Part shown: one piece after another, positions 3,120-45,343 of the stretch
Position numbering within the stretch: position 1 is the first letter of the stretch
Layout of the letters: each line of letters opens with the position of its first letter
Assembly: GCA_050008535.1 (NCBI GenBank)
Contig: JBEKML010000001.1
Span: 2,246 to 66,245 of the forward strand
Direction: 5' to 3'
Length of the DNA stretch: 64,000 nucleotides
DNA from: Minisyncoccia bacterium
GTDB lineage: Bacteria > Patescibacteriota > Minisyncoccia > UBA6257 > 2-01-FULL-56-20
The notes under the pieces: generated by a model
Seen by the model: the letters and a program-made list of their open reading frames with translations, nothing else
Database searches by the model: none
Told to the model about the DNA's origin: nothing
Translations under genes and position numbers: made by a program

Positions 3120-3185
3120 GCTAGCAAGAAGACGGTTTGAAAAGAGCCCTTCTTAGTACTCTTTTCAAACCGTCTTCTTGCTAGC
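3120..3185. repeat. Conserved-loop hairpin, copy 1. A 27-bp perfect stem (3120-3146 pairs with 3159-3185) carries a 12-nt loop CCCTTCTTAGTA. It sits between convergent znuB-like (+) and tRNA-Gly (-), 5 nt past the tRNA 3' end.
   Basis: Left arm gctagcaagaagacggtttgaaaagag is the exact reverse complement of the right arm. The same loop sequence recurs in five other hairpins in this window whose stems are unrelated. Confidence 0.85.
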
Positions 3186-3190
3186 CAATG

Positions 3191-3261
3191 AGCGGGTGAA
3201 GGGAATCGAACCCTCGTCTATAGCTTGGGAAGCTACCGTACTGCCACTGTACTACACCCGC
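3191..3261 (-). tRNA. tRNA-Gly(CCC). No CCA is encoded.
   Basis: Reverse complement GCGGGTG-TA-GTAC-AGTGGCA-GTAC-G-GTAGC-TTCCCAA-GCTAT-AGAC-GAGGG-TTCGATT-CCCTT-CACCCGC-T gives a cloverleaf with 7-bp acceptor, GG in the D-loop, TTCGATT T-loop and anticodon CCC. Confidence 0.85.
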
Positions 3262-3288
3262 GACACAGATATTGTAAGCCAATCTTCT

Positions 3289-3954
3289 TTAATCTTCAAC
3301 GAGCGGCACAAAACTGAAACCGTGATATTCTCGCCGTTTGAAATCCCCTTTTTCTGCTTTTTGTAAAACCACCATGCTTTCCCTCGCCGGCGCAACGATC
3401 TTTCCGCCCGCGCGAAGTTCGTTTTTCCATGCCGGAGGGATATCGTCGCCTGCGGCCGCAGCGATGATCTTGTCATAGGGAGCGTCCGCCGCATATCCCT
3501 TTGAACCGTCGCCCAAAATCACTCGCACGATGCCGCTTTTTATAAAACCGTATTTCCCCACATTGGCCTCGGTCATTGTTTTGAGTTCGGGGATCCGCTC
3601 CACCGCCGTCACGTGGCCTTTTTCACCTACAAGATGTGCAAGCAAGGCGGTCTGCCATCCCGAACCGGAGCCGATGTCCAAAATCTTCTCTCCCGCGCGC
3701 GGGGCGAGAAGTTCAAGCATGAAAGCGACAGTAAGCGGCTGGGAAACGGTCTGTCCGAAACCGATGGGCAGCGGATAGTTGCCGTACGCCTCGCGCGCGA
3801 ATTCCGGCAAAACGAAGTCATTGCGATCAATCTCACGGAACGCCCGGATGATCGCCGGCGTCTTTAAATATCCGCCTCGTATCAAACCTTCTACAAGATC
3901 GTTGAATGCCTTATTCACCGGTCGTCGTTGCCGTGGATGTTTCCGCCGGAACAA
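3289..3954 (-). CDS. pcm: Protein-L-isoaspartate O-methyltransferase (Pcm). The true start is probably the GTG at 3918, which would remove the overlap with the upstream ftsB-like gene.
   Basis: Motifs VSQPLTVAFMLELL, ILDIGSGSGW (SAM-binding) and LGDG are typical of PIMT. Confidence 0.75.
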   Translation of the reverse strand: MFRRKHPRQRRPVNKAFNDLVEGLIRGGYLKTPAIIRAFREIDRNDFVLPEFAREAYGNYPLPIGFGQTVSQPLTVAFMLELLAPRAGEKILDIGSGSGWQTALLAHLVGEKGHVTAVERIPELKTMTEANVGKYGFIKSGIVRVILGDGSKGYAADAPYDKIIAAAAGDDIPPAWKNELRAGGKIVAPARESMVVLQKAEKGDFKRREYHGFSFVPLVED

Positions 3955-4204
3955 TAACGATCATCGTCTCGCCGGGTTTTTTATAGTTGAACCGCGCACG
4001 CAATTCTTTTTCCAAATTGAGCGGATTTGCAAGATATTGCACTTCCGACTGTAGATTTGCTTCGTCATACTGCGCCTTGGTAAGGCGCGTCTCAATATCG
4101 GCGAGGGCGGTACTCAACTGCCTTTCCTGTATGAAAAACCCGTAGACCCGCACCCCTACCGCTACAAGAACAATAAGGAGGATTATCGCTCCCACGATCT
4201 TCAT
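3911..4204 (-). CDS. Septum formation initiator (FtsB/DivIC-like) small bitopic protein.
   Basis: 97 aa with an N-terminal TM (IVGAIILLIVLVAVGV) followed by a coiled-coil region, as in FtsB/FtsL-family divisome proteins. Confidence 0.5.
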   Translation of the reverse strand: MKIVGAIILLIVLVAVGVRVYGFFIQERQLSTALADIETRLTKAQYDEANLQSEVQYLANPLNLEKELRARFNYKKPGETMIVIVPAETSTATTTGE

Positions 4205-4220
4205 TGCCTTCAGTGTACCA

Positions 4221-6035: not shown

Positions 6036-6050
6036 TACGTCACTATGCAC

Positions 6051-8033: not shown

Positions 8034-9980
8034 ATGTTCAAAAAAACCTCCTCGTGCCTCGCTTGGTGGACCCTTGCCTTGATCGCTCTCACTGCTTTTT
8101 CTCTCATGTTATGGGCGTCCCGCACTGATTCGGCTATTATGGACGAGCTCGCACACATTCCGGCGGGCTACGGCTACGTGCATAACCTGGATTACCGCCT
8201 GAACCCGGAACATCCCCCGCTCGTAAAAGCGCTCGCGATGCTGCCTGTGCTCTTCCTGCAGCCGAATTTCCCGGCAGCGAGCGACGCGTGGCAGAACCAG
8301 ATAAACGCACAATGGGACGTCGGCGCGCAGTTCCTCTACCAATCCGGCAATAATGCGAACGAAATCATCCAAACCGCGCGCATTTTCCCGATCTTGATCA
8401 CTTTGCTTGTCCTTCTTTTTATCTATCTTCTTGCGCGCGGCATTATGGGTAATTGGTGGGCGCTTCTGCCCGCCGCGCTTTTCGCACTTGATCCCACCGT
8501 GCTTGCACAGGGGCATTACGTGACGACAGACCTCGGCGCCGCATTTGGTGTCATCTTCGCTACTTATTATTTTCTAAAATTTGTTGAATCGCCTTCTACA
8601 AAGCATCTCTGGTTCGCCGGCCTTTCTTTCGGCGTAGCGCAGATCACGAAATTTTCCGCGCCGTTCCTCGTGCCGCTTTTCGTTTTTCTCACATTCGTGC
8701 TCTGGCTCCGCAATATCATCGTTGAACACGGCACCATGGAGCGTTCGCGGCGATTCAAGATATTTTTAACGCGCGGCCTTCGATGGATCTGGCGACTCAT
8801 CCTTGTTTTTGCGATCGGCTACGTCTTCATCGTCTATCCAATCTACTTCCTTTTCACAGCCAATTATCCCATCGCAAAACAGGTATCGGACGCGCAATTC
8901 ATCTTGGGTTCGTTCGCGAACGGCCCCACGCCCGCGGGGACGCACTGCGCGGGCATACGCTGCCTTGCCGATCTTGATATCTGGATGGCAAAAAGTCCTG
9001 TGCTCCGCCCGCTCGCGGAATATATGCTCGGCATCCTTATGGTGTTCCAGCGCTCTGCCGGCGGGAACACGATCTATTTCCTGGGCGAAGTCCGCGGCGC
9101 CGGCGGCCCGGCATATTTCCCGCTTCTTTTCCTTCTCAAAGAACCCGTCCCCACCCTTATCATCGTCCTTGCGGCGCTTATCCTCGCCGCCTGGTGGATG
9201 ATCCGCCGCGATCCCCGCGACGGCCGGAGGCGCGGGCAACGGATCCTTGATTACCTTGGCGTGAATTTCCCGGAATTTTCCATGGCGTCGTTCATCGTCC
9301 TCTATTGGGGCTACAGCATGCAAAGCCCCTTGAACATCGGCCTCCGCCATCTTATGCCGACCATTCCCTTTGTTTACATTCTCGCTGCAGGCGTCTGGAA
9401 AAAGTGGGTTACCCGCATTAACTTCCCCGGAGGAGAGCTTACCATTGCCTTGATCGGCGCCGCCGCAAAATCATTCGCACGCGGGAGCATCAAATACCTC
9501 TTCCTCGTAGCGCTCATTCTCTGGCTTTTTCTTGAAACGCTTTTTGCCGCGCCGTATTTCCTCTCTTATTTCAACGAGTTCGGCGGCGGCATTTGGAACG
9601 GCTACCACTGGGTGACCGATTCCAACTACGATTGGGGGCAGGACCTCCTCCGGTTGCAGTCGTGGGCCGTGGCACACCCGGAAGCGGACAAGATCGCAGT
9701 GGATTACTTCGGCGGAGGAAATCCCTCGTACACGCTGGGCGGCAAGGAAGTAAATTGGTGGGCATCGCGCGGGAATCCGAGCGATCAAGGCATCCACTGG
9801 CTCGCCGTTTCCGTGAATACGCTTGAGGGTGCGATCCAGCCGCTCGCGCCCGGGCAAGTGCGCAACGCCTCCGACACCTACTCCTGGCTCACGGCGCTTC
9901 GGCCGGCCGGCGCCGGCATGGGCAATGTTCCCGCGCCCGATGACCGGGCGGGCACGTCGATCTTCATTTATCATCTCTAA
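8034..9980 (+). CDS. Glycosyltransferase family 39 (ArnT/PMT-like, lipid-carrier-dependent) polytopic membrane protein. The start is taken at ATG 8034, not the upstream in-frame extension.
   Basis: About 12 TM segments and the conserved periplasmic-loop motif NPEHPPLVK near the N-terminus, as in ArnT/PMT family enzymes. Confidence 0.65.
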   Translation: MFKKTSSCLAWWTLALIALTAFSLMLWASRTDSAIMDELAHIPAGYGYVHNLDYRLNPEHPPLVKALAMLPVLFLQPNFPAASDAWQNQINAQWDVGAQFLYQSGNNANEIIQTARIFPILITLLVLLFIYLLARGIMGNWWALLPAALFALDPTVLAQGHYVTTDLGAAFGVIFATYYFLKFVESPSTKHLWFAGLSFGVAQITKFSAPFLVPLFVFLTFVLWLRNIIVEHGTMERSRRFKIFLTRGLRWIWRLILVFAIGYVFIVYPIYFLFTANYPIAKQVSDAQFILGSFANGPTPAGTHCAGIRCLADLDIWMAKSPVLRPLAEYMLGILMVFQRSAGGNTIYFLGEVRGAGGPAYFPLLFLLKEPVPTLIIVLAALILAAWWMIRRDPRDGRRRGQRILDYLGVNFPEFSMASFIVLYWGYSMQSPLNIGLRHLMPTIPFVYILAAGVWKKWVTRINFPGGELTIALIGAAAKSFARGSIKYLFLVALILWLFLETLFAAPYFLSYFNEFGGGIWNGYHWVTDSNYDWGQDLLRLQSWAVAHPEADKIAVDYFGGGNPSYTLGGKEVNWWASRGNPSDQGIHWLAVSVNTLEGAIQPLAPGQVRNASDTYSWLTALRPAGAGMGNVPAPDDRAGTSIFIYHL

Positions 9981-23136: not shown

Positions 23137-23173
23137 AAGGATTTATTACATTATAGAACAAAAATAAGCAACT

Positions 23174-23219
23174 AAAACAAACCGCTTAGTTATGACGGCG
23201 AAATACTGCGGTTTGTTTT
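23174..23219 (-). terminator. Intrinsic-terminator-like hairpin downstream of rplK (11-bp stem aaacaaaccgc/gcggtttgttt). A TATAAT for tmk follows immediately.
   Basis: A hairpin followed on the minus strand by the T-rich tract ttagttgcttatttttgttc. ttctataatgtaataaatcc then precedes the tmk ATG. Confidence 0.4.
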
Positions 23220-23226
23220 ATTGCGC

Positions 23227-24648: not shown

Positions 24649-24728
24649 CATGATAGCGTGAGTTGTAGTGTTTGGCCGGCAGCCCTTCTTAGTACTGACG
24701 GCAAAACACTACAACTCACGCTATCATG
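24649..24728. repeat. Conserved-loop hairpin, copy 2. A 34-bp stem with two G:A mismatches carries the loop CCCTTCTTAGTA. It lies between rpsF and ssb.
   Basis: catgatagcgtgagttgtagtgttt... pairs with ...aaacactacaactcacgctatcatg. The loop is identical to copy 1 although the stem is unrelated. Confidence 0.85.
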
Positions 24729-25173: not shown

Positions 25174-28100
25174 TTATTCCTTAGCGGCAAGGGTGGTCTT
25201 TTCTGCATCAGCTTCAAGTTCATGGAGCACCTCGCGGCCCGATTCCCTATCCCCCGCAGGGATGAGACGGCCGATGATCACGTTTTCTTTGAGCCCGCGG
25301 AGTTTGTCCACTTTTGCCTCAATTGCGGCCTTCACGAGCACGCGCGCGGTATCCTGGAACGATGCCGCAGAAAGGAAGCTCTCAGCCGAAAGCGCGATGC
25401 GCGTGATCCCAAGGAGCACCTCGTCCGCTTTCGCAGGCTGCCCGCCCTGTTTTTTGATCTCGCGGTTCACCTCCAAAAACTTCGCCTTCTCGACGATCTC
25501 GCCCATCACAAAGTCCGGTGCATCGCCCCCGTCGCGGATCTTCACGCGCGAGAACATCTGCCGCACGATCATTTCAATGTGTTTATTGTTGATCGAGGCG
25601 CCCTCCGAGAGATAGATCTTTTGCACTTCGTTCACGATATAACGGGCCACCGCAAGCGCGCCCCTGTGCTCGTATAACTCATGGATATCCAGGTTCCCCT
25701 CGGAAAGCAGGTCGCCCTTCCGGATCTTGTCCCCCGCTTTCGCATAAAGCACGGTGCTGCGCGGGACGGCGATCTCCTGGGCCTTTGTTTTCTTGTTCTC
25801 GGAAATAAGACGGAGCACTTTCTGGGAACCTCTTTCCTCCACTTTCTCCACCGATCCATCAAAAGGCGCGAGCACGGCGCGGCCCTTCGGCGAGCGCATC
25901 TCGAAAATTTCTTCCACGCGCGGCAAACCGTGCGTAATGTCCGCGCCCGCCACGCCTCCCGCGTGGAACGTGCGCATCGTAAGCTGCGTTCCCGGTTCCC
26001 CGATGGACTGCGCCGCAAGCACTCCTGCCGCAGCGCCGATCTTCACCGGTTCGTTTACGCCAAGATCATATCCGTAACACTTGGCGCAAATACCGTAAAA
26101 TGTCCTGCAGGTGATGGGCGACCGCACGGTAACCGCATCCAGCTTGGATTGTTCGATAAGTTCCGCCGCCGCTTTGTCTATGATCTCTCCGGCCCGCGCA
26201 ACAACTTTGTGCCCGATCCGGATATCATCAAGCGCCGCGCGGGAGAACAAACGGGAAGAAAAGCTCTGGTTGAATTCCTTGCCGTCGGCGCGCAAAATCT
26301 CGATCCCCTCTTTCGCCCTGCAATCTTCTTCGCGGACCGTGAGGTCCTGGGCCACATCCACCAAGCGCCGCGTCAGGTAGCCGGCCTGCGCCGTCTTCAA
26401 AGCGGTGTCGGTGGTTCCTTTCCGCGCGCCGTGCGTAGAAATGAAGTATTCCAAAACCGAGAGCCCTTCTTTAAGCGACGACCGCACGGGGAGCTCGATG
26501 GTTTCTCCTTTCGGGTTCTGCACGAGCCCTTTCATGCCCATCATCTGGATCGGCTGGGACCATGAACCGCGCGAGCCGGAATCCACCATCTGATAGATAG
26601 CATTGTCCACCGACAAAACGACCGAGACGAGCTTCGCAAGCTCGCCCTTCGCCCTGTCCCACACACTGATTACGCGCGCCTTGCGCTCAGAGGACGTAAG
26701 AAGCCCCTCGCGGTATTGTTCCCGTATCAAACCCACCTCTTCGTCGGCCTTCCGCATGATCTCGCCTTTTTCGGTAGGAATAATAAGGTCGGCCATTGCC
26801 CATGTGATGCCCGAGACCGTTGCCATCTCAAAGCCAAGCAGTTTCACGCCGTCCAAAATCTCGCGCGCCGTATCGAGCCCGTGCACGTCAAGGATCTTCT
26901 CGATGATCTTTTTGAGTTTTTTGCTTGTCACCGTCTCGTTCACGAACTCAACTGTCCCGTGAAGTACTTCATTGAAGATCAAGCGGCCGAGCGTGGTATC
27001 GATGCCCTTCACGCGGATCGCCGAATGGAGCGTGACCACGTTATTTTCGTAGGCAAGAAGCGCCTCTTCGACGCCGAGCATCGGTTTTGCGGCATCCCCT
27101 TTCGAGGACGGGCGGGTGAGATAATAAACGCCGAGCACCATATCTTTTGTGGGAGCGGCAATAAGCTCGCCGGTTGCGGGCTTCAAAAGCCCCTTCCCTG
27201 CCGCCATGATCTCTACGGCTTCCTTTTGCGCAAAATCGGAAAGCGGAAGATGAACCGCCATCTGGTCGCCGTCAAAGTCGGCATTGAACGCGGAACAGAC
27301 GAGCGCGGGGATCTTTATCGCAAGCCCCTCAACAAGAAGCGGCTTGAAGGCCTGCACGGAGAGCCGGTGCAGGGTCGGCGCGCGGTTCAAAAGCACGCGT
27401 TTGCCCTTAATGATCTCTTCCAGAATTCCCAACACTTCCGGCGTATGTTCTTCAATATAGCGCGACGCGCTCCGGATGTTGTGCGCAAGGCCGCGCTTGA
27501 TGATCTCGCCAATCACGAACGGGCGGAAAAGCTCCAGCGCCATCCGCTTCGGCAAACCACATTCGTCAATTTTTAAATTGGGACCCACGACAATGACCGA
27601 CCGGCCGGAATAATCCACGCGCTTCCCGAGCAAGTTCTGGCGGAAACGGCCCTGCTTCCCTTTCAACATGTCGGCCAGGGAACGCAAAGGACGCCGCTGC
27701 GCCGAGAGCTGCTGGGTGCCGAAGCGGGCGGAATTATCAATTAGGGCGTCCACCGCTTCTTGAAGCATGCGCTTCTCGTTGCGGATAATGACGTCCGGCG
27801 CCTTGATCTCCAGGAGCTTTTTCAAGCGGTTGTTGCGGTTGATCACGCGGCGGTAAAGGTCGTTCAGGTCGGAAGTTGCGTACCGTCCGCCGTCCAGGGC
27901 CACCATGGGCCGAAGGTCCGGCGGGAGGACCGGAAGCACCGTCATCACCATCCATTCCGGACGGCTGCCGTTCCGGATCATTGATTTGAGCATCTTCAGG
28001 CGCCGCAGGAGCTTGCTTTGCGCAAGAGGGTCCTTTGCGTTTTCCAGTTGCGCCTCAACGCCTTGCACTTCCTTCCGAAGGTCCAATTTTTCCAAAATTT

Positions 28101-31100
28101 GTTTTACGGCCTCGGCGCCGCTCCCCGCCTTGAAAATACTCCCGAACCTCCGCGAGAGCGAGAAATATTCGTTCTCCGAAAGGATCTGGCCAACGTGAAG
28201 ATTTTCCAAATATTCTTTCGTCGTGTCGGCGGCCTCCAAGATCTCTCCTTTTACCATCTTATCCTTATTGCCGACGGTCTTCAGCTTGCCCTTGAGCTCG
28301 CGCTCAAGGTCCGCAAGCGCAACTTTGCGGTTTTCCTCTTTTATCTCCGTGATGATGTAGGCCGAGTAATAAATGACGCGCTCAAGCTTCTGCGAAGAAA
28401 CGTCAAGGGCGAGCGCAAGGCGCGAAGGGATGCTCTTCAAGAACCAGATATGCGAGACAGGAGCGGCAAGCGCGATGTGGCCGATGCGCTCGCGCCGCAC
28501 CGCCGCGCGCGTGACCTCCACGCCGCACTTATCGCAGATCACGCCCTTGTAGCGGATCCGGCGATACTTGCCGCAATAGCACTCATAGTCCTTCGTAGGG
28601 CCGAAGATGCGTTCGGAGAACAAGCCGTCCTTCTCGGGGCGCTGCGTCCGATAATTGATGGTCTCCGGTTTTATCACCTCCCCATGGGACCATTTCAAAA
28701 TATCTTCCGACGACGCGACGCTGATCTTCAATGCGGAGAAATCATCTTTACGATCGGTTTCTGTCTCATACAGCGGCTGGATATTGAATCCAAGCGATTT
28801 AAGTTCGTTCACAAGCACATTGAAGGACGCCGGAATGTTCGGCTCCTTGATCTGCTCGCTGCGTATGATGGACTCGTACGCCGCTGCGCGGCCCAGGACG
28901 TCGTCGGACTTGATCGTGAGCATTTCCTGGAGCGTGTGGCGCGCGCCGTAGCCTTCAAGGGCCCACACCTCCATTTCGCCGAACCGTTGGCCGCCGAACT
29001 GCGCCTTCCCACCCAGCGGCTGCTGGGTGATCAAAGAGTACGGACCGATGGAACGCATGTGCGCCTTGTCTTCCACAAGATGGTTCAGCTTCATCATGTA
29101 CACCTGCCCCACGGTCACCCGGCTTTCAAAAGGTTCGCCGGTGCGGCCGTCAAAGAGCTTCACTTTGCCGTCCTCGGGCAGTCCCGCCTTCGCGAGTTCC
29201 TCGCGGATCTCCGCTTCCGTCGCCGAGTCCAGTCCCGGCGTGATCGCGCGGTATCCCAACTTTGAAGCCGCCCACCCCAAGTGGGTCTCCAGGATCTGGC
29301 CGAGGTTCATGCGCGAGATGACGCCCAACGGGTTCAAAACGATGTCCACCGGCGTGCCGTCCTCCAAATAGGGCATGTCTTCCGCCGCGCGCACCTGCGA
29401 GATGACGCCCTTGTTCCCGTGGCGCCCGGCAAGCTTGTCGCCCGACTGGACCTTCCGGAGTTCCGCGATCTCCACCTGAATGCGGCGGATGATCCCCGGC
29501 TCCAGCTTGTCGCCGCGCTCCCGGTCAAAGATCTTCACGTTCACCACGCGGCCCAGTTTCCCGTGCGGAAGGATAAGCGAGGTATCTTTCACGTCCCGCG
29601 CCTTCTCGCCGAAGATCGCACGGAGCAGGCGCTCTTCCGACGTCAGTTCCGATTCGCCCTTCGGCGAAATTTTCCCGACCAAAATGTCGCCGGCTTTGAC
29701 CTCGGCGCCGATGCGGATGATCCCCTCCTCGTCAAGATTTTTCAATTTGTCTTCCGAAACATTGGGGATATCGTAGGTGGTGACTTCCGGCCCTAATTTC
29801 GTGTCGCGTACGTCGCAATCATAATTATCAATATGGATGGAGGTGAAAAGGTCGTCGCGGACCACGCGTTCGGAAAGAACGATGGCATCCTCAAAATTCG
29901 CGCCTTCCCACGAGACGAAGGCAACAAGAAGATTCTGGCCCAGGGCGAGCACTCCGTGATCGATCGACGGACCGTCAGCGAGAATCTCTCCTTTTGCGAC
30001 CGCCTGCCCCGTAACGACGAGCGGTTTCTGCGAAATGCACGTGAATTGGTTGGAGCGTTTGAACTTTTCAAGAACGTAGTTTTTGGTCACCCTGCCATAC
30101 TTCACCTTAAGATGGTTCCCGTCGGCCTCAAGCACGGTCCCTTTGTCCTCGGCGACGATCACATAGCCCGAATCAAGCGCCACCCGCTCTTCCTCCCCCG
30201 TCGAAACATAGGGGGCGTCGGGCTTCACGGACACCACGGCCTGCCGTTGCATGTTCGAACCCATGAGCGCGCGGTTTGCATCGTCGTGCTGGAGGAAGGG
30301 AATAAGCGCGGTCGCAACCGAGATGAACTCGTTCGGAGCGACGTCGATAAGGTCTATTTCTTCCGGCGTGCAGGTTCCCGGCTCGCCTTTAATGCGCGCT
30401 TCCACGATCGGTCCTTTCAAGCGGTCTCCCTCGCGCGGGGTACCGGCATGGGTGATCTTGTATTTTTCTTCTTCCGAAGCATCGAACCAAACGATCTCGT
30501 TCGTAACGCGGCCGTCTTTTACCTTTGCATACGGCGCCTCCAAAAATCCAAAATCGTTGATGCGCGTAAAGCTTGCAAGATAATTGATAAGGCCTATGTT
30601 CGATCCCTCCGGCGTTTGGATCGGGCAGATACGGCCGTAGTGCGAGCGATGGACGTCGCGCACCTCAAAGCTCGCGCGTTCGCGCGTGAGGCCGCCGGGG
30701 CCGAGCGCCGAAATCCTCCGCTTATGCTCCAATTCCGCAAGCGGGTTCACCTGGTCCATGAACTGCGAAAGCTGCGAAGAAGCGAAAAACTCCTTGATGA
30801 CCGCGGCGATCGGACGGAAGTTCACGAGCTGCGACGGCATCAAATGATCTTTATCTTCCGTGGACATCCGGTCCTGGATGATCCTCCGCAAGCGCGCGAG
30901 CCCGATCCGGAGGCGGCCCTGCAAAAGCTCTCCCACGGTCTTCAGGCGGCGGTTGCCCAAGTGGTCGATGTCATCCTCTTCGGCCTCGGCATTGTTATTC
31001 AAAGAGATGATCTCTTTTACGATCCCAATGAGGTCCTCGGCATCCAAAAGTTTGTTGTTCTTCTTGCGATCCAGATCCAGGCGCTGGTTCATCTTGTAGC

Positions 31101-31905
31101 GGCCGACCTCCGAGAGGTCATAGCGATCAGGGCGATGGAACATCGCGTCAATGAGGCTTTTTGCCGTTTCCGCGCCCGCAGGGTCGCCCGGCCGCAAGCG
31201 GCGGTAGATCTCGATATACGACTCGGTCGTGTCTTTTGCGACGTCTTTTTTGAACGTCGCTTCGATGAATTTCACCGGGCCATTATCCATCTTCTCGAAT
31301 GCGGCCCCGATCTTTTCGTTGTCCAACCCGAATATACGAAGGATGTCCGTCACCGGCACTTTCCTCCGGCGGTCGATCTTCACGCCGATTTCGCCGTTCA
31401 CGTCGGTTTCGAATTCAAGCCAGGCGCCGCGCGAAGGAATGATCTTCGCGCCGAAAAGCTGCCGGCCGCGATAGGGCACCGCCGTGAAATACACGCCGGC
31501 GGAACGCACGAGCTGTGAAACCACCACGCGCTCAACGCCGTTCACGATGAACGTTCCGCGGCTTGTCATGATCGGGAAATCGCCGAAGTACACCTCTTGC
31601 TCTTCCGTCCTCCCCGTCCGCTTGTTCACCAGTTTCAAAGTGCACCGCAAGGGTGCTTCATACGTCGCTTCTTTGTACCGCGCCGTCGCCTCGTCATATT
31701 TCGGTTCGTCGAAACGATAGTTGGTAAAGGAAAGTTCGAACTCCTTGCCCGTGTGATCGCGGACCGGCGAAATTTCCACAAGGAGCTCCTGCAGCCCTTT
31801 ACCCAAAAACCACTGATACGACTTCAGTTGCGCTTCATTCAAATTGAATGGCGCAATAAGGGATTTCGATTTCGAAAAGTCTTTTATTTTGGAAAATTTT
31901 GCCAT
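25174..31905 (-). CDS. rpoBC: DNA-directed RNA polymerase beta-beta' fusion (rpoB and rpoC in one continuous frame). The start is taken at ATG 31905 ([10 protein letters not shown]...).
   Basis: N-terminal half is RpoB (rifampicin-region and GEMEVWALE-like motifs). The RpoB C-terminal end ...[24 protein letters not shown] runs without a stop into the RpoC N-terminus ...[40 protein letters not shown] (zinc finger), through NADFDGDQM to the C-terminus. Total 2243 aa. Confidence 0.85.
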
Positions 31906-31995
31906 CAAAATAAAGTTTTTTATAATGAAAAAGTTTGCTCCCCTCCAACGCACAAAAAACGGCTCCCTTCTCTTTTTTCAAGAAGTCCGTTCTAA

Positions 31996-35318: not shown

Positions 35319-35368
35319 TGCCGCCTCCTTGTCGTAAGTATTTTATGAACTTAGGTTGGGGGGCGATG

Positions 35369-35650
35369 TTACTCGCCCACCTCCTTCTTCTTTCTGCCGA
35401 GAACGACCCCGCAGGCAATCGCGGAGACCACGGTAAGGACGGCGAAGGCCTGAGTGCCGACCTTCCTCGCAGCCACCTCTTCCTTCACGGAACCGGCAAG
35501 GGCTGTGTTGCCCTGTTCTCCCTGGGCAAGGCAGGCGCTCTGCCCGAGAGAGATTCCCCAGTTCGTTGCGTTGTAGAGGGAGAGATAGCCGAACACCAGC
35601 GCAAGAAGCGCCAGCAAGACCACGAGACGCTTTCTCATGAGATAGCTCAC
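35369..35650 (-). CDS. Hypothetical small membrane protein (93 aa, two TM segments).
   Basis: GAGGTG SD upstream; hydrophobic N- and C-terminal segments. Confidence 0.35.
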   Translation of the reverse strand: MSYLMRKRLVVLLALLALVFGYLSLYNATNWGISLGQSACLAQGEQGNTALAGSVKEEVAARKVGTQAFAVLTVVSAIACGVVLGRKKKEVGE

Positions 35651-35717
35651 CTCAGAGCTGTGCTTGTTATAGCCTATTTATAGAATTATGTCCAGTGCAC
35701 GGGACGGGATTTGAACA

Positions 35718-35740: not shown

Positions 35741-35861
35741 TGTCGGCACATCCTACTTTCCCCGCAGGCGAACCCGCAAGTATCATCGGATCGGGGCGCT
35801 TTCACTTCTCTGTTCGGAATGGGAAGAGGTGGGACACGCCCGAATAAAGCACCGACATCAA
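35738..35861 (-). rRNA. rrf: 5S ribosomal RNA.
   Basis: Reverse complement contains CCCATTCCGAACAGAGAAGTGAAAGCGCC... (5S loop B/helix III consensus), and the terminal helix I pairs gatgtcggtgc with gcaccgacatc. About 124 nt. Confidence 0.85.
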
Positions 35862-35874
35862 AAGGTCGTTCACA

Positions 35875-35934
35875 GACAGGTATGCGTTTTGGCAACAGTA
35901 CTAAGAAGGGCTGTTGCCAAAACGCATACCTGTC
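35875..35934. repeat. Conserved-loop hairpin, copy 3, in the 23S-5S spacer. A 24-bp perfect stem carries the loop in the opposite orientation (TACTAAGAAGGG).
   Basis: gacaggtatgcgttttggcaacag is the exact reverse complement of ctgttgccaaaacgcatacctgtc. Confidence 0.85.
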
Positions 35935-35960
35935 TGCTCACTCTCTTTGAACATTGATTG

Positions 35961-36030
35961 AGTGTTTGCCAAATAGCGTTTGGACGAGAGCCCTTCTTAG
36001 TACTCTCGGACAAACGCTATTTGGCAAACA
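35961..36030. repeat. Conserved-loop hairpin, copy 4, in the 23S-5S spacer. A 29-bp stem with a 2-nt internal mismatch carries the loop CCCTTCTTAGTA. It abuts the 23S 3' processing stem.
   Basis: gtgtttgccaaatagcgtttggacgagag pairs with ctctcggacaaacgctatttggcaaacac. Confidence 0.85.
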
Positions 36031-36033
36031 CGA

Positions 36034-36054
36034 AGTCAGCATTGGGATGGTTGG
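36034..36054. repeat. 3' arm of the 23S rRNA processing stem. It is the exact reverse complement of 40083-40103, about 4 kb away.
   Basis: gtcagcattgggatggttggc at 36034 matches gccaaccatcccaatgctgac at 40083 as a 21-bp perfect long-range inverted repeat bracketing the 23S gene. This is the classic RNase III processing helix. Confidence 0.8.
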
Positions 36055-36157
36055 CGGGATTATTAGTACTCCTTGGCTGAAGCCATTGCTGGCCTTACAC
36101 CTAGAGCCTATCAACGTGGTAGTCTTCCACGAAATCACGCACACCTAATCTTGGGGT

Positions 36158-36191: not shown

Positions 36192-36333
36192 CTTCCATAC
36201 ATAGCTACCCGGCAGTTCACCTGGTGGCAAAGCCGGTAGACCAGAGGTATGTTCAGCCCAGTCCTCTCGTACTAAGGCCAACTCCCCTCAAGTGTTAAAC
36301 GCCTGCAGCAGATAGAGACCGACCTGTCTCACG

Positions 36334-37086
36334 CAATATATTATTTCACGCCATTGCTGGCGGTTTGGACTATACCACCATCTCGATCCACACCGAGATG
36401 ACCGACGTTTTATGGAATTTTTCTTCCATCCAATCCCTTAGATTGAGTCTCTACGGGGTCAATGTATATAGCTTTCGCTTCTTTGAATAATTCAATTCTC
36501 TGAAACGATCTACGGTCTTCATCAGCACGTGAAAATCGCCTTGATTTTTCACATTCGCTTTTTTATCCAAGACTTCCAGCATAAGCATCGCTTGATCCTT
36601 TTTCATAATGAGGTACGGCTGAACTATATCAAGAAATGCGCGGATAGCGCCTTCTCTCGCAATAGTATATTCAACCATGCCGTCATTTCTCTCTCGGAAA
36701 TAACCGAGGTTGACGAAGGAACAAACTTGCTTGAACTTTTTCAGTTCTTTTTTGGATTGGAACAACACAATATACGGTGCTACTTGAAATCCGTACCGAT
36801 ATTCGGCATTAGGTTTCAATCGCACGTAAATGCTTCCATCTCCATCTAGAAATCCTGCAATATATGCTTTTTGTGCTGACGAAAGACTTTTCATACACGA
36901 CTTCCCTCGGTATTATCCTATAATCACCCACTCATGCAAAATATCTTTTAATATATTTTTAATGAGCATTGTGGTATGTCCACAGGTCATGGACATTAGG
37001 ACTTCACCGATATGAGTCGATTTATGCACCCTAACGTTGCCGCTAGGGGCCGCCGTGTTCGATTATCGTTAAGGGTTCTTTGGTTG
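36334..37086 (-). mobile_element. Group I intron in 23S rRNA at the E. coli L2593-equivalent (I-CreI-type) site, carrying a LAGLIDADG homing endonuclease ORF.
   Basis: The flanking exons rejoin to GGGTTCAGACCGT|CGTGAGACAG, matching E. coli GGGTTTAGAACGTCGTGAGACAG exactly. Exon 1 ends in U, the intron ends in G, and the ORF lies in a peripheral loop. Confidence 0.75.
36451..36894 (-). CDS. LAGLIDADG homing endonuclease (single-motif, I-CreI-like) encoded in the 23S group I intron.
   Basis: MKSLSSAQKAYIAGFLDGDGSIYVRLKPN... has a single LAGLIDADG motif (IAGFLDGDGSI) near the N-terminus; 147 aa. Confidence 0.85.
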   Translation of the reverse strand: MKSLSSAQKAYIAGFLDGDGSIYVRLKPNAEYRYGFQVAPYIVLFQSKKELKKFKQVCSFVNLGYFRERNDGMVEYTIAREGAIRAFLDIVQPYLIMKKDQAMLMLEVLDKKANVKNQGDFHVLMKTVDRFRELNYSKKRKLYTLTP

Positions 37087-38493
37087 ACGGTCTGAACCCA
37101 GCTCACGTGCCACTTTAATTGGCGAACAGCCAAACGCTTGGGAGCTTCTTCACCCCCGCGCTGTGGCGAGCCGACATCGAGGTGCCGAGCGAAGTCGTCG
37201 ATAGGAACTCTCGGACTTCACCAGCCTGTTATCCCCGGAGTAGCTTTTATCCGGTGTCTCCGGCCTTTCTATCAAGAGTTTAATGAATCGTAAGAAACAA
37301 TAAACGTAGCCGTCGGGTCACTAACTTCTGCTTTCGCACCTGCTCGACTTGTAGGTCTCGCAGTCAAGCCGGCTTTTGCGTTTGCACGTCCTGCCCGATT
37401 TCCATCCGGGCTAAGCCGACCTTAATAAACTCCTCCGTTACTTTTTTGGAGGAAAACGCCCCATTTAAACTGCCTACCAAGCACTGTCTCAGCCGGGTTT
37501 ATGCTTGCGCACTTCCCAGCCGGTTAGTCTTTAAAATCTTAAAGATGGCTGTTTCATTGTCGGATCCACCGCCCCCGAGAGGGCGGCTTCAAATCCTCAC
37601 CACTACGCTACGCATCAAGATTCTAAAGACAATACCAAGCTGCAGTAAAGCTTCCGGGGTCTTTTCGTCCCGCTGCAGGTATCCCGCGTCTTCACGGGAA
37701 TCGCATTTTCACCGAGCTTGCCTCTGAGACAGTTCTCCAGTCGTTACGAGCACCGCACCTTGCGGCACGGCACCCCCAACCTTGACCTTCTCGCATCGGT
37801 CAGGCGTCACCCCCTATACATCCTCTTGCGAGTTAGCAGGGAGCTGTGTTTTTGGTAAACAGTCGCCAGAGAGACTTTCGCTGCGGCCCCTCAATAAAGA
37901 AGGGCAGGCCATATTGCTAACTTACGGCCGCTTTTTTGCCGAGTTCCTTAGAGGCAAATCACTCGTTCCCCTTGGGCTTCTCGCCCTATCTACCAGTGTC
38001 GGTTTACGGTACGGATCCTCTGTAACGTTACCGTCGTGCTTTTCTCGGAAGGCTCTTCACGCGTGTTAGTGAGGTAAATTCCTCACCTTCCGCCAATCCT
38101 CGCTTGAACTTCGGACCAGCGATACCAAACCAATAAGGCATACGCACTTATTTCCTTCGCACACGACGGATAATCACAAAGGAGGGCTGGAATATTAACC
38201 AGCATTCCATCAGCTGCGGCTTTCGCCATCGCCTTAGGACCGCCTAACCCGTGGTTGATTGCCAGTGCCACGGAAACCTTGGATTTTCGGGGTTCCAATT
38301 TCTCATTGGGATTGTGGTTACTCATGCCAACATTTTCTCTTCCGGCCGCTCCAAACGCCCTCGCGGGTCGATCTTCGCTGCAGACCGGAATGCTCTCCTA
38401 CCGCGCATGGACTTCATAGAGGAGGCCAAGCGAACATATGCTCGCCTCGCACTCCGATAATTATTGCTATTCGTGTTGACCGCCCAGGAGGGG

Positions 38494-38570
38494 TGGTCGG
38501 GCCGGTGGGATTTGAACCCACGACTTCCGAGGCCCGAGCTCGGCGCGCTACCAGGCTGCGCCACGGCCCG
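38494..38570 (-). tRNA. tRNA-Pro(CGG) embedded inside the 23S helix-45 IVS, with CCA encoded (38494-38496).
   Basis: CGGGCCG-TG-GCGC-AGCCTGGTA-GCGC-G-CCGAG-CTCGGGC-CTCGG-AAGTC-GTGGG-TTCAAAT-CCCAC-CGGCCCG-A-CCA. The D-arm GGCGCAGCCTGGTAGCGC is identical to E. coli tRNA-Pro, and G72/A73 plus G35G36 are the Pro identity set. Confidence 0.65.
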
Positions 38571-39540: not shown

Positions 39541-39577
<37 letters not shown>

Positions 39578-40082: not shown

Positions 40083-40103
40083 CAATGCTGACTTACTAAC
40101 TGC
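40083..40103. repeat. 5' arm of the 23S processing stem (partner of 36034-36054).
   Basis: Exact 21-nt reverse complement of 36034-36054, located immediately upstream of the 23S 5' end on the transcribed strand. Confidence 0.8.
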
Positions 40104-40501
40104 TCTGCCTGCCAAGAGAAATTGCGCGCTTTGTGAAAATGCGATTGTCGATAGCGCGTGTCCGGCACAATACCAGACATAATAATGGCGCAGAGCTTCT
40201 TATACCATACTCCGACTCTACAATTCGGAGCCGCCCAATGACTACCAAGGCGGACGATGTTAAATTGCGTTCCATGCACGAATCCCGGGAAAAAAATCAG
40301 CCGCACACGGCGGCCGCCCCAGTGCGCAAAAACGCGCGGTTCAGCCGCAATGCTTTTGGAGGATTATTTTCGCGTTCATTCGTACGAGGTCTATTATACG
40401 CGGCGGCAAAATAGTGTCAAGTGGGCGAAAATCCCACACTAGACCGATAAAGGAAAATCCTATATGGTCATTAGAGAAATCTTCGGTTCCAAGGAGGGAC
40501 C

Positions 40502-40873: not shown

Positions 40874-40890
40874 AAGCACGGAGGCATTCA

Positions 40891-40938
40891 GGGGCGGCGC
40901 TCATCGTCGCCCCGATCCTTTAGTTTGAGTTTTTTTTG
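40891..40938 (+). terminator. Rho-independent terminator with a GC hairpin and a T8 tract.
   Basis: ggggcggcg-ctcat-cgtcgcccc is followed by gatcctttagtttgagttttttttg. Confidence 0.75.
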
Positions 40939-40966
40939 AAACAGGGTACTATTCAAGCACGGTAAA

Positions 40967-41037
40967 CGGGCCGTCGTATAGTGGTAGTATACACGCTTCG
41001 GGTGCGTGCGGTCTGGGTTCGATTCCCAGCGGCCCGA
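40967..41037 (+). tRNA. tRNA-Pro(CGG), free-standing copy, with no encoded CCA.
   Basis: Acceptor CGGGCCG/CGGCCCG is identical to the IVS copy, with discriminator A. Anticodon stem-loop CACGC-TTCGGGT-GCGTG, T-arm CTGGG-TTCGATT-CCCAG. The body sequence is divergent from the IVS copy. Confidence 0.7.
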
Positions 41038-41045
41038 CAAGAGAA

Positions 41046-41111
41046 CATAAAGCAGGTACGGTTTGAAACGAGTACTAAGAAGGGCTCGTTTCAAACCGTA
41101 CCTGCTTTATG
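41046..41111. repeat. Conserved-loop hairpin, copy 5. A 27-bp perfect stem carries the loop TACTAAGAAGGG. It lies 8 nt after the tRNA-Pro 3' end and ahead of a convergent gene.
   Basis: cataaagcaggtacggtttgaaacgag pairs with ctcgtttcaaaccgtacctgctttatg. Confidence 0.85.
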
Positions 41112-41126
41112 TTTGTTCGTTTTGCG

Positions 41127-41534
41127 TCAGCTTATCTTGGAGAGGTCGCCGTTAAGAATTATCGGCTCGACAGCCTGAAGTTCGTCCTTAATGTACGGCT
41201 GGTCAGGCATGGGATTAAGGAAATAAATTTTCTTTCCCTTGTAATGCGCGAATCCGATCTCCAGGAATGAGTTTGCGCCGATATAGTTTTCTATTTCCCC
41301 CTTGGTAAAGTTCGTGACGAGAATAGCATCGGAATTTTCTATTTTCCGCATGTGTTCGCCGATAAGCCCGAGGCTTTGTTTTGCCTGCACGCGGCCTGAA
41401 TTATCTTCCGCCCAATAATTGACACCTGGGACCTTGATCGGCATAAAGACGGTGTGTCCCATGGCTTCAAGCTTTTTCTGGACCTCGATTTCTTGATCGT
41501 AAAACTTTATTGAGCCGCAGATCGTGATGGTCAT
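41127..41534 (-). CDS. Nucleoside 2-deoxyribosyltransferase-like (Rcl/DNPH1-like fold) protein. The start is taken at ATG 41534 (MTITICGS...).
   Basis: MTITICGSIKFYDQ...AILVTNF... has a flavodoxin-like N-deoxyribosyltransferase-superfamily pattern; 135 aa. Confidence 0.4.
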   Translation of the reverse strand: MTITICGSIKFYDQEIEVQKKLEAMGHTVFMPIKVPGVNYWAEDNSGRVQAKQSLGLIGEHMRKIENSDAILVTNFTKGEIENYIGANSFLEIGFAHYKGKKIYFLNPMPDQPYIKDELQAVEPIILNGDLSKIS

Positions 41535-41536
41535 GG

Positions 41537-41968: not shown

Positions 41969-42032
41969 CCGAATATTCTATCACGAAAAACGAATGCTCG
42001 AACAATACTACTTGCCATGCATGTCCGCCGCG

Positions 42033-42431
42033 CTATTTTCTCCTCCGCCTTTCCCGATGGAGCTGCTTTGATTTCTGCGTGATGGCGAAAACGGAAAGGA
42101 CCATAATGTAATCCGCAACCACCTCGGGCTCAAGCATGTAGTGTTTGCCGCTTGAGAAAAAAGCGATGCCGGAAAGAAGAAAGACGAGCACCGTCCACGC
42201 GACAATGAAGAGCTCCCCGGGGTGGCGACTGTCGTGGATGTCATACCAACGGTCGAATTCCTTCGTGCTGGCGTAAAGCATAAGCACGCCCGCATAGACG
42301 GCGCTCAAGGGGAGGGTAAGTGCTTCGTACTTGTTAAGCGAGAAAAAATTCACGACCACAAACACCATGAAGACGATAGTCCACATTGCGCAGAGGAACC
42401 GCCATATCCGTTCGTCGCGAAAGGGTCCCAT
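42033..42431 (-). CDS. Hypothetical integral membrane protein (4 TM).
   Basis: 132 aa, hydrophobic, with a basic C-terminus. Confidence 0.4.
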   Translation of the reverse strand: MGPFRDERIWRFLCAMWTIVFMVFVVVNFFSLNKYEALTLPLSAVYAGVLMLYASTKEFDRWYDIHDSRHPGELFIVAWTVLVFLLSGIAFFSSGKHYMLEPEVVADYIMVLSVFAITQKSKQLHRERRRRK

Positions 42432-43888: not shown

Positions 43889-43899
43889 GTGCCCGGGGC

Positions 43900-45090
43900 T
43901 TAGCGCACTGTCGCACCGAATTCCTCCTTTACCTTTTCTTCAAGCGCATGATGCATACTATCTACCTCTTCATTGGTAAGCGTCCGATCAAGATGGCGAT
44001 AGACGATGCGGAAAGTGTAGCTTGTTTTGCCAGCGCCAAATTTCGCTTCGTCGGCGTATTCGTCAAGCTGTTTCATTTCTTCTATATATTCATCGCCAAT
44101 TACCTCGCGGGTAATTTCATAAAACCGATTCACATTGAACACGTTCTTATCAACGATGAATGAAATGTCGCGCGTAACCGGAGGATATTTGCTCACAGAT
44201 TGATAAAGGCGATCAAGATCGGCAAGTTGTTTTATAACGCGCGGATCCGTTGAGCGGAACAATCGTATGTCCGGCAACTTCAATTTGATCATCGCGAGGC
44301 GGTCAACGCCAAAACCAAACGCCCAGCCATTATAGACCGCGGGGTCAAAGCCGAGATTGCGAATAACATTAGGATGCACGATGCCGGCGCCCAAAATTTC
44401 CACCCACTGATCACCCCACGCAATGTTCATTTCCAGGCTCGGATCGGTGTAGGGGAAGTGATCCACAACAAACTTATATTTTACATCTTCCCCATACAGT
44501 GAACGCGCGACTTCAAGAAGGATCGCCTCAAGGTCCGGCTGATCAAGCGTTTTCAGATCTTTGCGGATGATGAAAAGGCCATCAATTTGGTGGGGAATAT
44601 TCGTGTGCTGCCAGTCGATCTCGTCGCGGCGATAGGTCTTGCCATAACTTAAGGCACCCACAGAACCATGCTTTTCCAATTTTTCCTTCACTTCGGGAAT
44701 TTCAAGATAATATTTCCACATCAAGCTTGTATGGGGGCGGAGAATGTGTTCCTTATCGACAAAATACGTGTCGCTCCGCGAGCGCGCCGGGTGATCTTTG
44801 GGAAAATTAAAGAGATCAAAAACAACGACTGGCGAGATAACTTCGGGGGTTTCAATAAGATCGAAATTCTTTAAGCTCGGGAGCTCAATAAGCCGCTCAA
44901 CGACCGTTTTAATGGGACTGCCCGCCGTGCGCGTAAGGTCCGGTAGAGCAAGATAGCGCCGCAGGCGATCAGCCTCGACGTCGCCGCGCGTACCGAGTTT
45001 TTTCAAAATTTCATTTTGCTCATCAGGCGGAACCCGATATTCTTTCCGCTTCAAGTGCGACGCCGCATACATTGGTTCCATGCTGCTCAT
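43900..45090 (-). CDS. pheS: Monomeric phenylalanyl-tRNA synthetase: a PheS-type class II catalytic core fused to a C-terminal FDX-ACB anticodon-binding domain, the mitochondrial FARS2-like architecture.
   Basis: Catalytic motifs FPKDHPARSRSDTYFV and GFGVDRLAM. The C-terminal RDISFIVDKNV...FRIVYRHLDRTLTNEEV...FGATVR matches the FDX-ACB domain normally at the PheT C-terminus. No pheT lies adjacent. Confidence 0.7.
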   Translation of the reverse strand: MSSMEPMYAASHLKRKEYRVPPDEQNEILKKLGTRGDVEADRLRRYLALPDLTRTAGSPIKTVVERLIELPSLKNFDLIETPEVISPVVVFDLFNFPKDHPARSRSDTYFVDKEHILRPHTSLMWKYYLEIPEVKEKLEKHGSVGALSYGKTYRRDEIDWQHTNIPHQIDGLFIIRKDLKTLDQPDLEAILLEVARSLYGEDVKYKFVVDHFPYTDPSLEMNIAWGDQWVEILGAGIVHPNVIRNLGFDPAVYNGWAFGFGVDRLAMIKLKLPDIRLFRSTDPRVIKQLADLDRLYQSVSKYPPVTRDISFIVDKNVFNVNRFYEITREVIGDEYIEEMKQLDEYADEAKFGAGKTSYTFRIVYRHLDRTLTNEEVDSMHHALEEKVKEEFGATVR

Positions 45091-45138
45091 AATAGCAAAA
45101 ATGCGGAGAAGGGCAAGGGAAATGCACTCGAGAAATCG

Positions 45139-45211
45139 TGCCGGCGGCAGGATTCGAACCTGCGACCTTGGCCTTATGAAAGCCCTGCTCTAACCACTGA
45201 GCTACGCCGGC
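45139..45211 (-). tRNA. tRNA-Met(CAU), elongator-type (Ile-lysidine not excluded); no encoded CCA.
   Basis: GCCGGCG-TA-GCTC-AGTGGTTA-GAGC-A-GGGCT-TTCATAA-GGCCA-AGGTC-GCAGG-TTCGAAT-CCTGC-CGCCGGC-A; G1-C72 is paired. Confidence 0.75.
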
Positions 45212-45277
45212 GCACCACCACTATATTATTTTCCGGCCGCCCCGTAAAGTCACGCATAAAAAATAAAAGTGAAAGAC

Positions 45278-45343
45278 GGTGGTAGCAATGGCTTTTGAAA
45301 CGAGCCCTTCCTAGTACTCGTTTCAAAAGCCATTGCTACCACC
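45278..45343. repeat. Conserved-loop hairpin, copy 6. A 27-bp perfect stem carries the loop variant CCCTTCCTAGTA (one T to C change). It lies 66 nt upstream of tRNA-Met.
   Basis: ggtggtagcaatggcttttgaaacgag pairs with ctcgtttcaaaagccattgctaccacc. Confidence 0.85.

Follow-up and report, generated by a model that had tools for sequence, protein, structure and literature searches.

Results

Six long hairpins share one tip

The analysed stretch of DNA, referred to below as the window, comprises 64,000 nucleotides of contig JBEKML010000001.1 (assembly GCA_050008535.1, positions 2,246 to 66,245) from a Minisyncoccia bacterium of the Patescibacteriota. Next to tRNA, rRNA and ribosomal-protein genes it carries six long hairpins (c1 to c6, Table 1), which enclose the same 12-nt tip, CCCTTCTTAGTA or its complement. 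The 12-mer is present at five exact sites and one site with a mismatch (45305-45316, T7>C, in c6), when 0.16 sites would be expected by chance, and none of 100 shuffles of the window reached six matches. No other inverted repeat of the window is as long as these six, and the next-best ones are far poorer; exactly 12 nt separate the arms, which are 26-36 nt long and 86-100% complementary. When folded as RNA, the six sites had energies between -48 and -57 kcal/mol and z-scores between -11 and -14. The shared loop with a single T to C variant, the near-perfect arms and the folded structures, all of which had been proposed in an initial annotation of this DNA, were thereby recovered, and the coordinates assigned at that time deviate by no more than 2-7 nt. 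A covariance model built from 24 members of the family (see below) found the six known copies in the window and no additional one.

c1 is flanked by the convergent genes for an ABC-3 permease (plus strand, ending at 3084) and tRNA-Gly (minus strand, 3' end at 3190); it lies 4 nt past the end of the latter, the transcript of which reads UACUAAGAAGGG. c2 is located 1 nt past the rpsF stop codon and closes the rpoBC-rpsF unit, and downstream of it an extended -10-like motif, TGCTAGAAT, was recognised by eye immediately ahead of the start codon of ssb. Two copies occupy the 23S-5S spacer: c4, 2 nt past the 3' strand of the 23S processing stem, and c3, the sole window copy with a transcript reading CCCUUCUUAGUA. 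Close to c5, a convergent open reading frame (ORF) ends at 41127. c6 has a U-rich tract behind it, as seen in the gene sense; it lies 66 nt upstream of tRNA-Met, with pheS beyond. The initial annotation had placed the copies correctly with respect to tRNA-Gly, tRNA-Pro, tRNA-Met, the 23S-5S spacer and the rpsF-ssb spacer; to this has to be added that a tRNA(CAU)-like gene precedes c6 at a distance of 16 nt. This gene has an imperfect acceptor stem and its 3' end adjoins c6; it appears to form one transcription unit with tRNA-Met and pheS.

Table 1. Hairpins of the window and the RNA features beside them
Feature	Position in the window	Strand	Remarks
c1 hairpin	3120..3185	-	27-bp perfect stem; loop CCCTTCTTAGTA on the plus strand
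c2 hairpin	24649..24728	-	34-bp stem with two mismatches (G·A on the plus strand)
c3 hairpin	35873..35936	-	26-bp perfect stem; 17 nt upstream of 5S rRNA
c4 hairpin	35962..36031	-	29-bp stem with tandem G·A/A·G mismatch
c5 hairpin	41044..41113	+	29-bp perfect stem; 5 nt past tRNA-Pro(CGG) on the plus strand
c6 hairpin	45278..45343	-	27-bp perfect stem; variant loop CCCTTCCTAGTA
tRNA-Gly(CCC)	3190..3261	-	no encoded CCA; c1 in its 3' trailer
tRNA-Pro(CGG)	40967..41038	+	no encoded CCA; c5 in its 3' trailer
tRNA(CAU)-like gene	45360..45430	-	found with the Rfam tRNA clan model only (33 bits, E = 3e-5); missed by ARAGORN
23S processing stem, 3' strand	36039..36065	-	GCCAACCAUCCCAAUGCUGACUU; pairs with the 23S 5' leader
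5S rRNA	35741..35856	-	own U-tract behind it

The hairpin family is found in Patescibacteria

The pattern AGCCCTTCTTAGTACT was searched for in 185,579 species genomes, in metagenome contigs and in viral contigs. In the species genomes 44 stretches matched, of which 10 were true hairpins, all of them in four metagenome-assembled genomes (MAGs): DATAXS01 (Paceibacterota), JBEKRC01 (Minisyncoccia), CAZNYI01 (Saccharibacteria) and CAVYIK01 ('uncultured bacterium'), the SSB protein of the last being 76% identical to that of the window. The metagenome contigs yielded 101 matching stretches and 17 true hairpins in 13 loci, including close relatives of the window at 93-99% identity. After removal of duplicates there are 24 distinct copies, six in the window and 18 at other loci (denoted by L numbers), and all are from Patescibacteria MAGs and metagenomes. 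The window itself is contained in the JGI contig Ga0427963_0000376, and its organism is present in the JGI peatland samples Ga0187886, Ga0187866, Ga0187878 and Ga0427963. The copy number is 6 in the 64 kb of the window and 3-5 found per MAG. The tip is spread across Patescibacteria, the classes being those given in the record titles of the MAGs. A loop that is not maintained in other genomes would have spoken against the initial proposal; it is unchanged in the Paceibacterota-, Minisyncoccia- and Saccharibacteria-labelled MAGs. At the rpsF site of relatives it has been replaced.

Six further 'Saccharibacteria' matches represent one conserved coding gene that holds the 16-mer by chance. A phage origin was rejected, as the viral contigs contain 3 exact sites and 111 sites with a free tetraloop, and none of these 114, nor any of 9 viral matches to a second tip described below, sits in a hairpin. 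Likewise, none of the ~34 genome stretches from outside the Patescibacteria that have the loop pattern forms a hairpin.

Scans of the window and 17 loci with Rfam 15 at gathering thresholds placed no family on any of the hairpins, and an E-value scan around c6 gave only sub-threshold noise from miRNA precursors on the hairpin. No description was found in the literature on the loop sequence and on hairpins, terminators and palindromes of the candidate phyla radiation (CPR)/Patescibacteria; the stem-loops reported in a paper on Gracilibacteria are unrelated to the family. The hairpin family is real and, as had been supposed initially, previously undescribed.

It should be noted that template switching is by itself able to generate long inverted repeats and to make them perfect (PMC8794818). 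Hairpins of this kind might in principle be neutral by-products of template switching, or assembly artefacts, with a loop shared by coincidence and no function at all. This is very improbable, because 24 distinct hairpins contain the same 12-mer although their assemblies, from JGI, ENA, NCBI and Logan, are independent, and matches in viruses and outside the Patescibacteria are not in hairpins. The conservation data also contradict it, the loop being identical at orthologous sites with diverged stems.

A conserved apical module sits on a locus-specific stem

The copies have more in common than the tip. All of them conserve the 11 bp adjoining the loop (5' arm TTTGRAARSAG, 3' arm CTSYTTYCAAA), the order from the loop outward being G, A, G/C, purine-rich positions, G and TTT. 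This inner stem and the 12-nt tip form a conserved apical module of ~34 nt, which is carried by a basal stem of 10-25 bp that differs by locus. At positions -12 to -27 pairing is found in ~100% of the copies, with all four pair types in every column, and no conserved motif was found at the foot of the hairpins. The basal part nevertheless has a compositional trend: on the 3' arm the core is followed by a G/C-rich segment (+12 to +16) and a T-rich segment (+17 to +24), and the 5' arm mirrors this with an A-rich segment. Total stem length is 21-36 bp, with a mean of 29.7 bp over 24 copies; no 'naked' core without a long stem was found among the 24, and no unpaired remnant exists at the junction between core and outer stem in the aligned copies.

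In the commoner (UAC) transcript sense the tip is predicted to fold further, by a U·G pair, an A·G mismatch, a C-G and a U-A pair, into an AAGA tetraloop, and this fold is ~1.9 kcal/mol more stable than that of the opposite sense. The three loop variants alter only the first two positions of the tetraloop (AGGA in c6, CGGA in L033b and L278).

The initial annotation had regarded the arms as unrelated between copies and had on these grounds excluded a simple repeat element. Neither view is supported. In addition to the common inner stem, 15 pairs of outer stems score above the 99th percentile of a shuffle null, when 2.8 would be expected; related outer stems were found for c1 and L138 despite unrelated flanks, for L010 and L039, which are two loci of one MAG, and for L140 and L143. 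The inner stem also comes in genome-specific flavours, such as GGGAAGAG in CAVYIK01 and GAAAAMAG in DATAXS01. The conserved core of ~34 nt with its local extension therefore behaves as a dispersed repeat family. A miniature inverted-repeat transposable element (MITE) with target-site duplications was ruled out, however, as the outer arms differ between copies and no such duplications flank them: of 25 copies, 21 gave a duplication length of 0 and the remaining ones 2 nt.

The hairpins lie directly behind genes

All copies, those of the window and the 18 others, are intergenic, and they are placed at gene 3' ends. Copies with an identifiable neighbour start 0-16 nt past its 3' end, with the exception of L039, which is 178 nt past a tRNA. 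The abutted genes are tRNAs, 23S, rpsF and Pfam-verified protein genes; in other genomes the RNA genes are tRNA-Gly, tRNA-Arg (two) and tRNA-Lys, so that the element is attached to different tRNAs in different genomes. The association with stable RNAs that had been noted initially is only part of the picture: the copies are enriched at tRNA and rRNA 3' ends, but they also follow genes for ssb, an SDR, KhpA, a thioredoxin-reductase-like protein, an H+-PPase, DoxX and a metallophosphatase. Four copies (c1, c5, L024 and L045) lie exactly between convergent genes.

The orientation of the tip is biased with respect to transcription. Among 16 scorable copies, 13 present UACUAAGAAGGG in the transcript of the gene that they abut and the other three (L041b, L117 and L278) present CCCUUCUUAGUA, which corresponds to p ~0.02 in a two-sided binomial test over the 16 copies with a verified abutting gene. 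Within the window c5 is the only copy beside a plus-strand gene, and its loop is flipped relative to those of c1, c2, c4 and c6, following the strand of the gene. The 12 nt past the hairpin contain, in the gene sense, 39% T (mean 4.7 of 12), with 5-7 of 12 for c1, c4, c5 and c6.

These findings bear on the function that the initial annotation had suggested, namely that the hairpins, as potential substrates of RNase III, may be processing or insulator modules for stable RNAs, with a loop that is read by a protein or by an RNA. In such a model the reader would position the cleavage, like Rnt1p on AGNN stems. This is unlikely to be the correct explanation, in spite of several features that speak for it. 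All stems, at 21-36 bp, have the duplex length of at least 20 bp required of RNase III substrates, copies are enriched directly past tRNAs and 23S and between co-transcribed RNAs (c3/c4 and c6), and the tip forms a structured AAGA tetraloop with an orientation bias. Moreover, no tRNA gene of the window encodes CCA (apart from the tRNA-Pro inside 23S described at the end), so that 3' trailers have to be removed by an endonuclease. However, the 23S rRNA has a 5'/3' processing stem of its own, of 23 bp, which marks the true 23S 3' end near 36045, immediately upstream of c4; c4 and c3 are local hairpins outside it. Thus c4 is not needed for this step and was ruled out as the stem from which 23S is processed. 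Many copies stand behind ordinary protein genes, the element resides on different tRNAs in different genomes, the tRNA-Asp of the window carries a different hairpin, and the tip at a given site is swapped in relatives for other tips or plain terminators. In addition, loop reading is not known for bacterial RNase III.

Several further candidates for the meaning of the loop were dropped. Complementarity to 23S rRNA amounts to one 8-nt match (CCCUUCUU, 37897-37904), which is compatible with chance, and resemblances to the sarcin-ricin motif, SRP domain IV, CsrA sites and boxB/boxA of lambda gave partial alignments that were inconsistent between copies.

Tips are exchanged at orthologous sites

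The rpsF-ssb spacer was retrieved from nine further genomes, via homologues of SSB or, for L010, from the genome scan. In the ten genomes compared, the window included, a structure is present directly past the rpsF stop codon in every case, but its type differs. The window and L010 have the CCCTTCTTAGTA-type tip, and L157, L158 and L280 have a second conserved tip, TCGTACGAAGACGAATTC, in both orientations. L155 has an apex of 90 nt on a stem homologous to that of L010, and L156 and L279 have apices of 57-72 nt. A complex hairpin followed by a U-tract is found in L278, and L281 has a textbook terminator composed of A-tract, hairpin and U-tract. A second site gives a similar picture: the window has a short hairpin followed by TTTT (23173-23220), L010 a long hairpin with another 13-nt tip. 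As the type of structure varies at one slot, the conserved thing at a site is a hairpin at the gene 3' end, and the comparison demonstrates that this hairpin is positionally equivalent to a terminator.

The sites persist down to ~75% nucleotide identity, and tip and stem evolve separately. The tip is identical in 12 of 12 positions between c2 and L010 and between c4 and L072, while the stems are 0-68% identical. The converse is also found, i.e. homologous outer stems with different tips: the second tip replaces c3 in L072 on a homologous outer stem, and L155 and L010 differ in the same way. These alignments demonstrate constraint on the tip, and they characterize the apical modules as discrete units that are kept across distant genomes and are interchangeable. 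Of the selection for a stem plus a specific loop that was initially proposed, the part concerning the loop thus stands; the part concerning the stem is considered below.

The second tip has the same AAGA tetraloop, with covarying closing pairs (C-G/G-C, U-A, C-G), and it also follows tRNA-Arg in a Saccharibacteria-labelled contig. TCGTACGAAGACGAATTC and its variants were seen at L280 9872-9943, 11268-11333 and 11818-11877, at L157/L158 about 9880-9940, at L072 312-374 and at L037 2372-2444; they cap long perfect stems beside genes, tRNAs and 5S, in both orientations and in the genomes of several Patescibacteria.

Two further kinds of apex were observed. Inserts of 57-90 nt are present on perfect stems of 27-34 bp with a TTTTGRAAC-type inner stem (L155 1539-1694 and 2609-2766; L156 9831-9941 and 10515-10657; L279 9799-9924), and in L155 one insert is the reverse complement of the other. 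Hairpins of this type may represent bigger forms of such an element that carry cargo. A third tip type, with the loops GGGCTCTTTTTA and AGGGCTTCTCTTA, CAT/ATG closing and 31-bp stems, is found at L041 7519-7592 and L010 3120-3194; one copy lies 1 nt past tRNA-Gly, the other in the slot that the short hairpin with its U-tract occupies in the window.

The arms are symmetrised at the DNA level

The stems of the 24 copies contain 712 pairs, 695 of which are Watson-Crick (97.6%), while 5 are G·T (0.7%) and 8 are G·A, the latter recurring at positions -4, -8 and -9. The full covariation of the outer stem that had been claimed initially is borne out: 98% of the alignment cells are paired, whereas shuffles reach 63% and controls with a slid partner column no more than 51%, and 25 of 29 pairs vary on both sides. 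Related copies differ only by changes that are mirrored in both arms, including indels of 2-7 nt. c6 and its orthologue in L099/L141 differ by two substitutions, each of them mirrored, the outer stems of c3 and its L072 orthologue by nine mirrored differences, and L155 and L010 by eleven, seven of which are indel columns. At the rpsF site, L157 keeps the sequence of the 5' arm without the outer 16 nt of the 3' arm that are seen in L158.

Template switching during replication is known to generate perfect stems in one event, to homogenise and extend arms and to invert spacers (PMC8794818; PMC8604942). The near absence of wobble pairs and the mirrored indels point to this process and not to stepwise compensation at the RNA level, and the aligned arms make a strong case for symmetrisation at the level of DNA. 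Thus, as template switching yields it, the covariation of the stems is not by itself proof of selection for an RNA stem. Spacer inversion would also explain why the same arms are found with the loop in either orientation (c3 versus c4; L280 versus L158).

Discussion

A proposed 3'-end hairpin with an exchangeable tip

The explanation that is tentatively preferred here is that the hairpins form a dispersed Patescibacteria family of REP-like (repetitive extragenic palindromic) 3'-end or terminator hairpins with an exchangeable, selected apical module. Judging from its position, the element would be a 3'-end hairpin in the transcript of the abutting gene, and it could act as a terminator poor in U-tracts or as a barrier against 3'-exonucleases and read-through, and possibly as a substrate of RNase III; between convergent genes it would act in both directions. 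The arms would be maintained by replication template switching, i.e. by quasipalindrome correction, arm extension and spacer inversion, as the pattern of changes together with the published mechanism suggests. This would produce the perfect arms, the mirrored indels, growth towards the ends of neighbouring genes and an occasional flip of the loop, and compensatory selection at the RNA level would not be required for the arm pattern. For the apical module, the orthologous sites show retention by selection and exchange between hairpins. The selecting agent might be a putative trans-acting reader of the tip, or the needs of the module's own spread.

Several observations weigh against this explanation. 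Most copies have no canonical U-tract, which would extend over about 7-9 nt right past the stem, and fail the rule used in the terminator scan (at least 5 T in 8 nt). c3 and c4 lie within the 23S-5S operon and c6 between two tRNA genes, and a strong terminator at these places, inside operons, would be harmful. Three or four copies of the CCCTTCTTAGTA-type tip are in the 'wrong' sense, and the second tip type has no orientation preference (about 3 versus 4). Perfect Watson-Crick pairing and orientation independence would fit a purely DNA-level element equally well. It should be added that the 5S rRNA gene of the window is followed by its own U-tract, and thus canonical U-tract termination exists in this organism.

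A competing explanation is an element that serves only itself. The 34-nt module could be a mobile palindrome of miniature size, with a REP/RAYT-like or HUH-type enzyme that moves it by acting on hairpins of single-stranded DNA; it would colonise existing hairpins, e.g. terminators, or replace their tips, and the tip would be kept for the mobilising enzyme without any role in RNA. An invariant loop on variable stems is a hallmark of HUH-nicked origins. The module is swapped on homologous outer stems, inner-stem flavours are genome-specific, related stems recur within one genome (L010 and L039) and in unrelated flanks (c1 and L138), c3 and c4 constitute an adjacent inverted pair, several discrete tip families coexist, and pairing is purely Watson-Crick. 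Nevertheless, we consider this explanation improbable. Target-site duplications are lacking, no presence/absence polymorphism was found among relatives at 93-99% identity, and the sites persist over the much larger distances mentioned above. Neither naked cores nor unpaired remnants at the junction were seen, and no transposase is present among the scanned neighbouring ORFs of the copies, although no systematic search was made. Lastly, the orientation of the tip follows transcription, in 13 of 16 copies and in c5, which flips with its gene.

The identity of the 12-nt tip in the face of stem turnover points to a putative reader. By analogy with eukaryotic systems, one could imagine a loop-guided system of RNA 3' ends, in which a putative conserved protein would read the AAGA-tetraloop tip (UACUAAGAAGGG or TCGTACGAAGACGAATTC) of long hairpins right past the 3' ends of tRNAs, rRNAs and mRNAs and trigger termination or cleavage at a measured distance. 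We regard such a system as speculative and rather doubtful, more so than the two alternatives of RNase III modules and of a selfish element; if true, bacteria would have a counterpart to the recognition of AGNN by Rnt1p or of the histone stem-loop by SLBP.

Comparison with known elements

The family is closest to REP sequences with their bacterial interspersed mosaic elements (BIMEs) and to intrinsic (Rho-independent) terminators, yet it lacks the conserved stem and foot of the former, and the U-tract of the latter is inconsistent in it. REP/BIME/REPIN elements of Proteobacteria, which are mobilised by RAYT, a Y1 transposase whose gene they usually flank, are likewise short dispersed extragenic palindromes just downstream of genes, they also form adjacent inverted pairs (here c3/c4) and have genome-specific sequence flavours, and they are tolerated or co-opted as 3' stabilisers of mRNA or as terminators. 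However, REPs conserve the stem with a 5' GTAG-type motif and leave the loop free, whereas the hairpin family conserves the tip and the inner stem on a locus-specific base. REPs are species-specific, while the 12-nt tip is identical across Patescibacteria classes as labelled in record titles; moreover, the copy number is low here, and no RAYT was found among the neighbouring ORFs scanned. With intrinsic terminators, which are often bidirectional, the hairpins share the position right past stop codons and stable-RNA 3' ends, often between convergent genes, the orthologous slot (canonical terminators in L281 and L278) and arms with A-rich, GC-rich and T-rich segments. They differ in stem length (21-36 bp versus 5-14 bp) and in the 12-nt, sequence-conserved apex, most of them have no clear U-tract, and some are inside operons.

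Other known elements are more distant. The Correia elements of Neisseria and similar MITE-type repeats are dispersed inverted repeats that are co-transcribed with their neighbours and have long duplexes suited to RNase III, but their terminal inverted repeats of 26 bp are conserved, and they come with a TA target duplication and a body of 100-155 bp, whereas here the outer arms differ by locus, target-site duplications are absent and the apex is conserved. The attC sites of integrons have the opposite polarity, with conserved R''/R' boxes at the base and a variable apex. The RNase III stems of rRNA operons are formed by sequences flanking the mature rRNA, which is not the case for c3 and c4. 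A variable stem with an invariant apex that is read by a protein is characteristic of the AGNN stems of yeast Rnt1p, of the 3' stem-loop of histone mRNA with SLBP and of HUH-Rep origins with their invariant loop nonamer, and this resemblance is one of analogy only. Rnt1p and SLBP hairpins define RNA 3' ends, and the likeness to HUH-Rep is not accompanied by a Rep gene adjacent to the hairpins. Loop-read hairpins of exactly these kinds are not known from bacteria.

Almost nothing is known about transcript ends or the maturation of stable RNAs in Patescibacteria, which are ultra-small and uncultivated. The family could serve as a handle that is searchable by sequence with a covariance model and that marks the 3' ends of tRNA, rRNA and ribosomal-protein operons across class-labelled MAGs. 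It is also an unusually clean natural case of template switching that creates, perfects, extends and flips long hairpins, and a warning that 'perfect covariation' alone is no evidence of selection on RNA structure.

Further observations on the genes of the window

The region around the rRNA genes contains several features apart from the hairpins. Near its 3' end the 23S gene is interrupted by an insertion of 753 bp (36333-37086) that is absent from the relative L088 and encodes a LAGLIDADG homing endonuclease (ORF 36451-36894, minus strand); it is designated here as a LAGLIDADG intron. Because of this insertion Rfam assigns position 37010 as the end of 23S. The 23S rRNA gene also harbours, on the same strand, a complete tRNA-Pro(CGG) (38494-38570, minus strand; Rfam tRNA, 65 bits). 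It is exceptional among the tRNA genes of the window in that its CCA is encoded; it has the same acceptor stem as the free-standing tRNA-Pro(CGG), and L088 possesses it as well. Possibly it represents an intervening sequence, and its excision by tRNA-processing enzymes would fragment the 23S rRNA.

A perfect sigma-70 consensus promoter (40393-40420, minus strand), with TTGACA, a 16-nt spacer and TATAAT, is located ~310 nt upstream of 23S. There is no 16S gene within the window, and thus the rRNA genes appear to be unlinked. Just downstream of 5S, the window has 364 bp (35330-35694) with a small ORF without a Pfam match, and the same site in L055 (11238-13857) and L088, relatives at 99% identity, holds ~2.6 kb. 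This segment was considered as a source of a mobilising gene and rejected, as it encodes an HD-domain protein and an inositol monophosphatase and no transposase. Lastly, rpoB and rpoC are fused in the window into one gene of ~2,250 codons (25174-31953, minus strand), and the fusion is kept in L156, L157, L158, L280 and L281.

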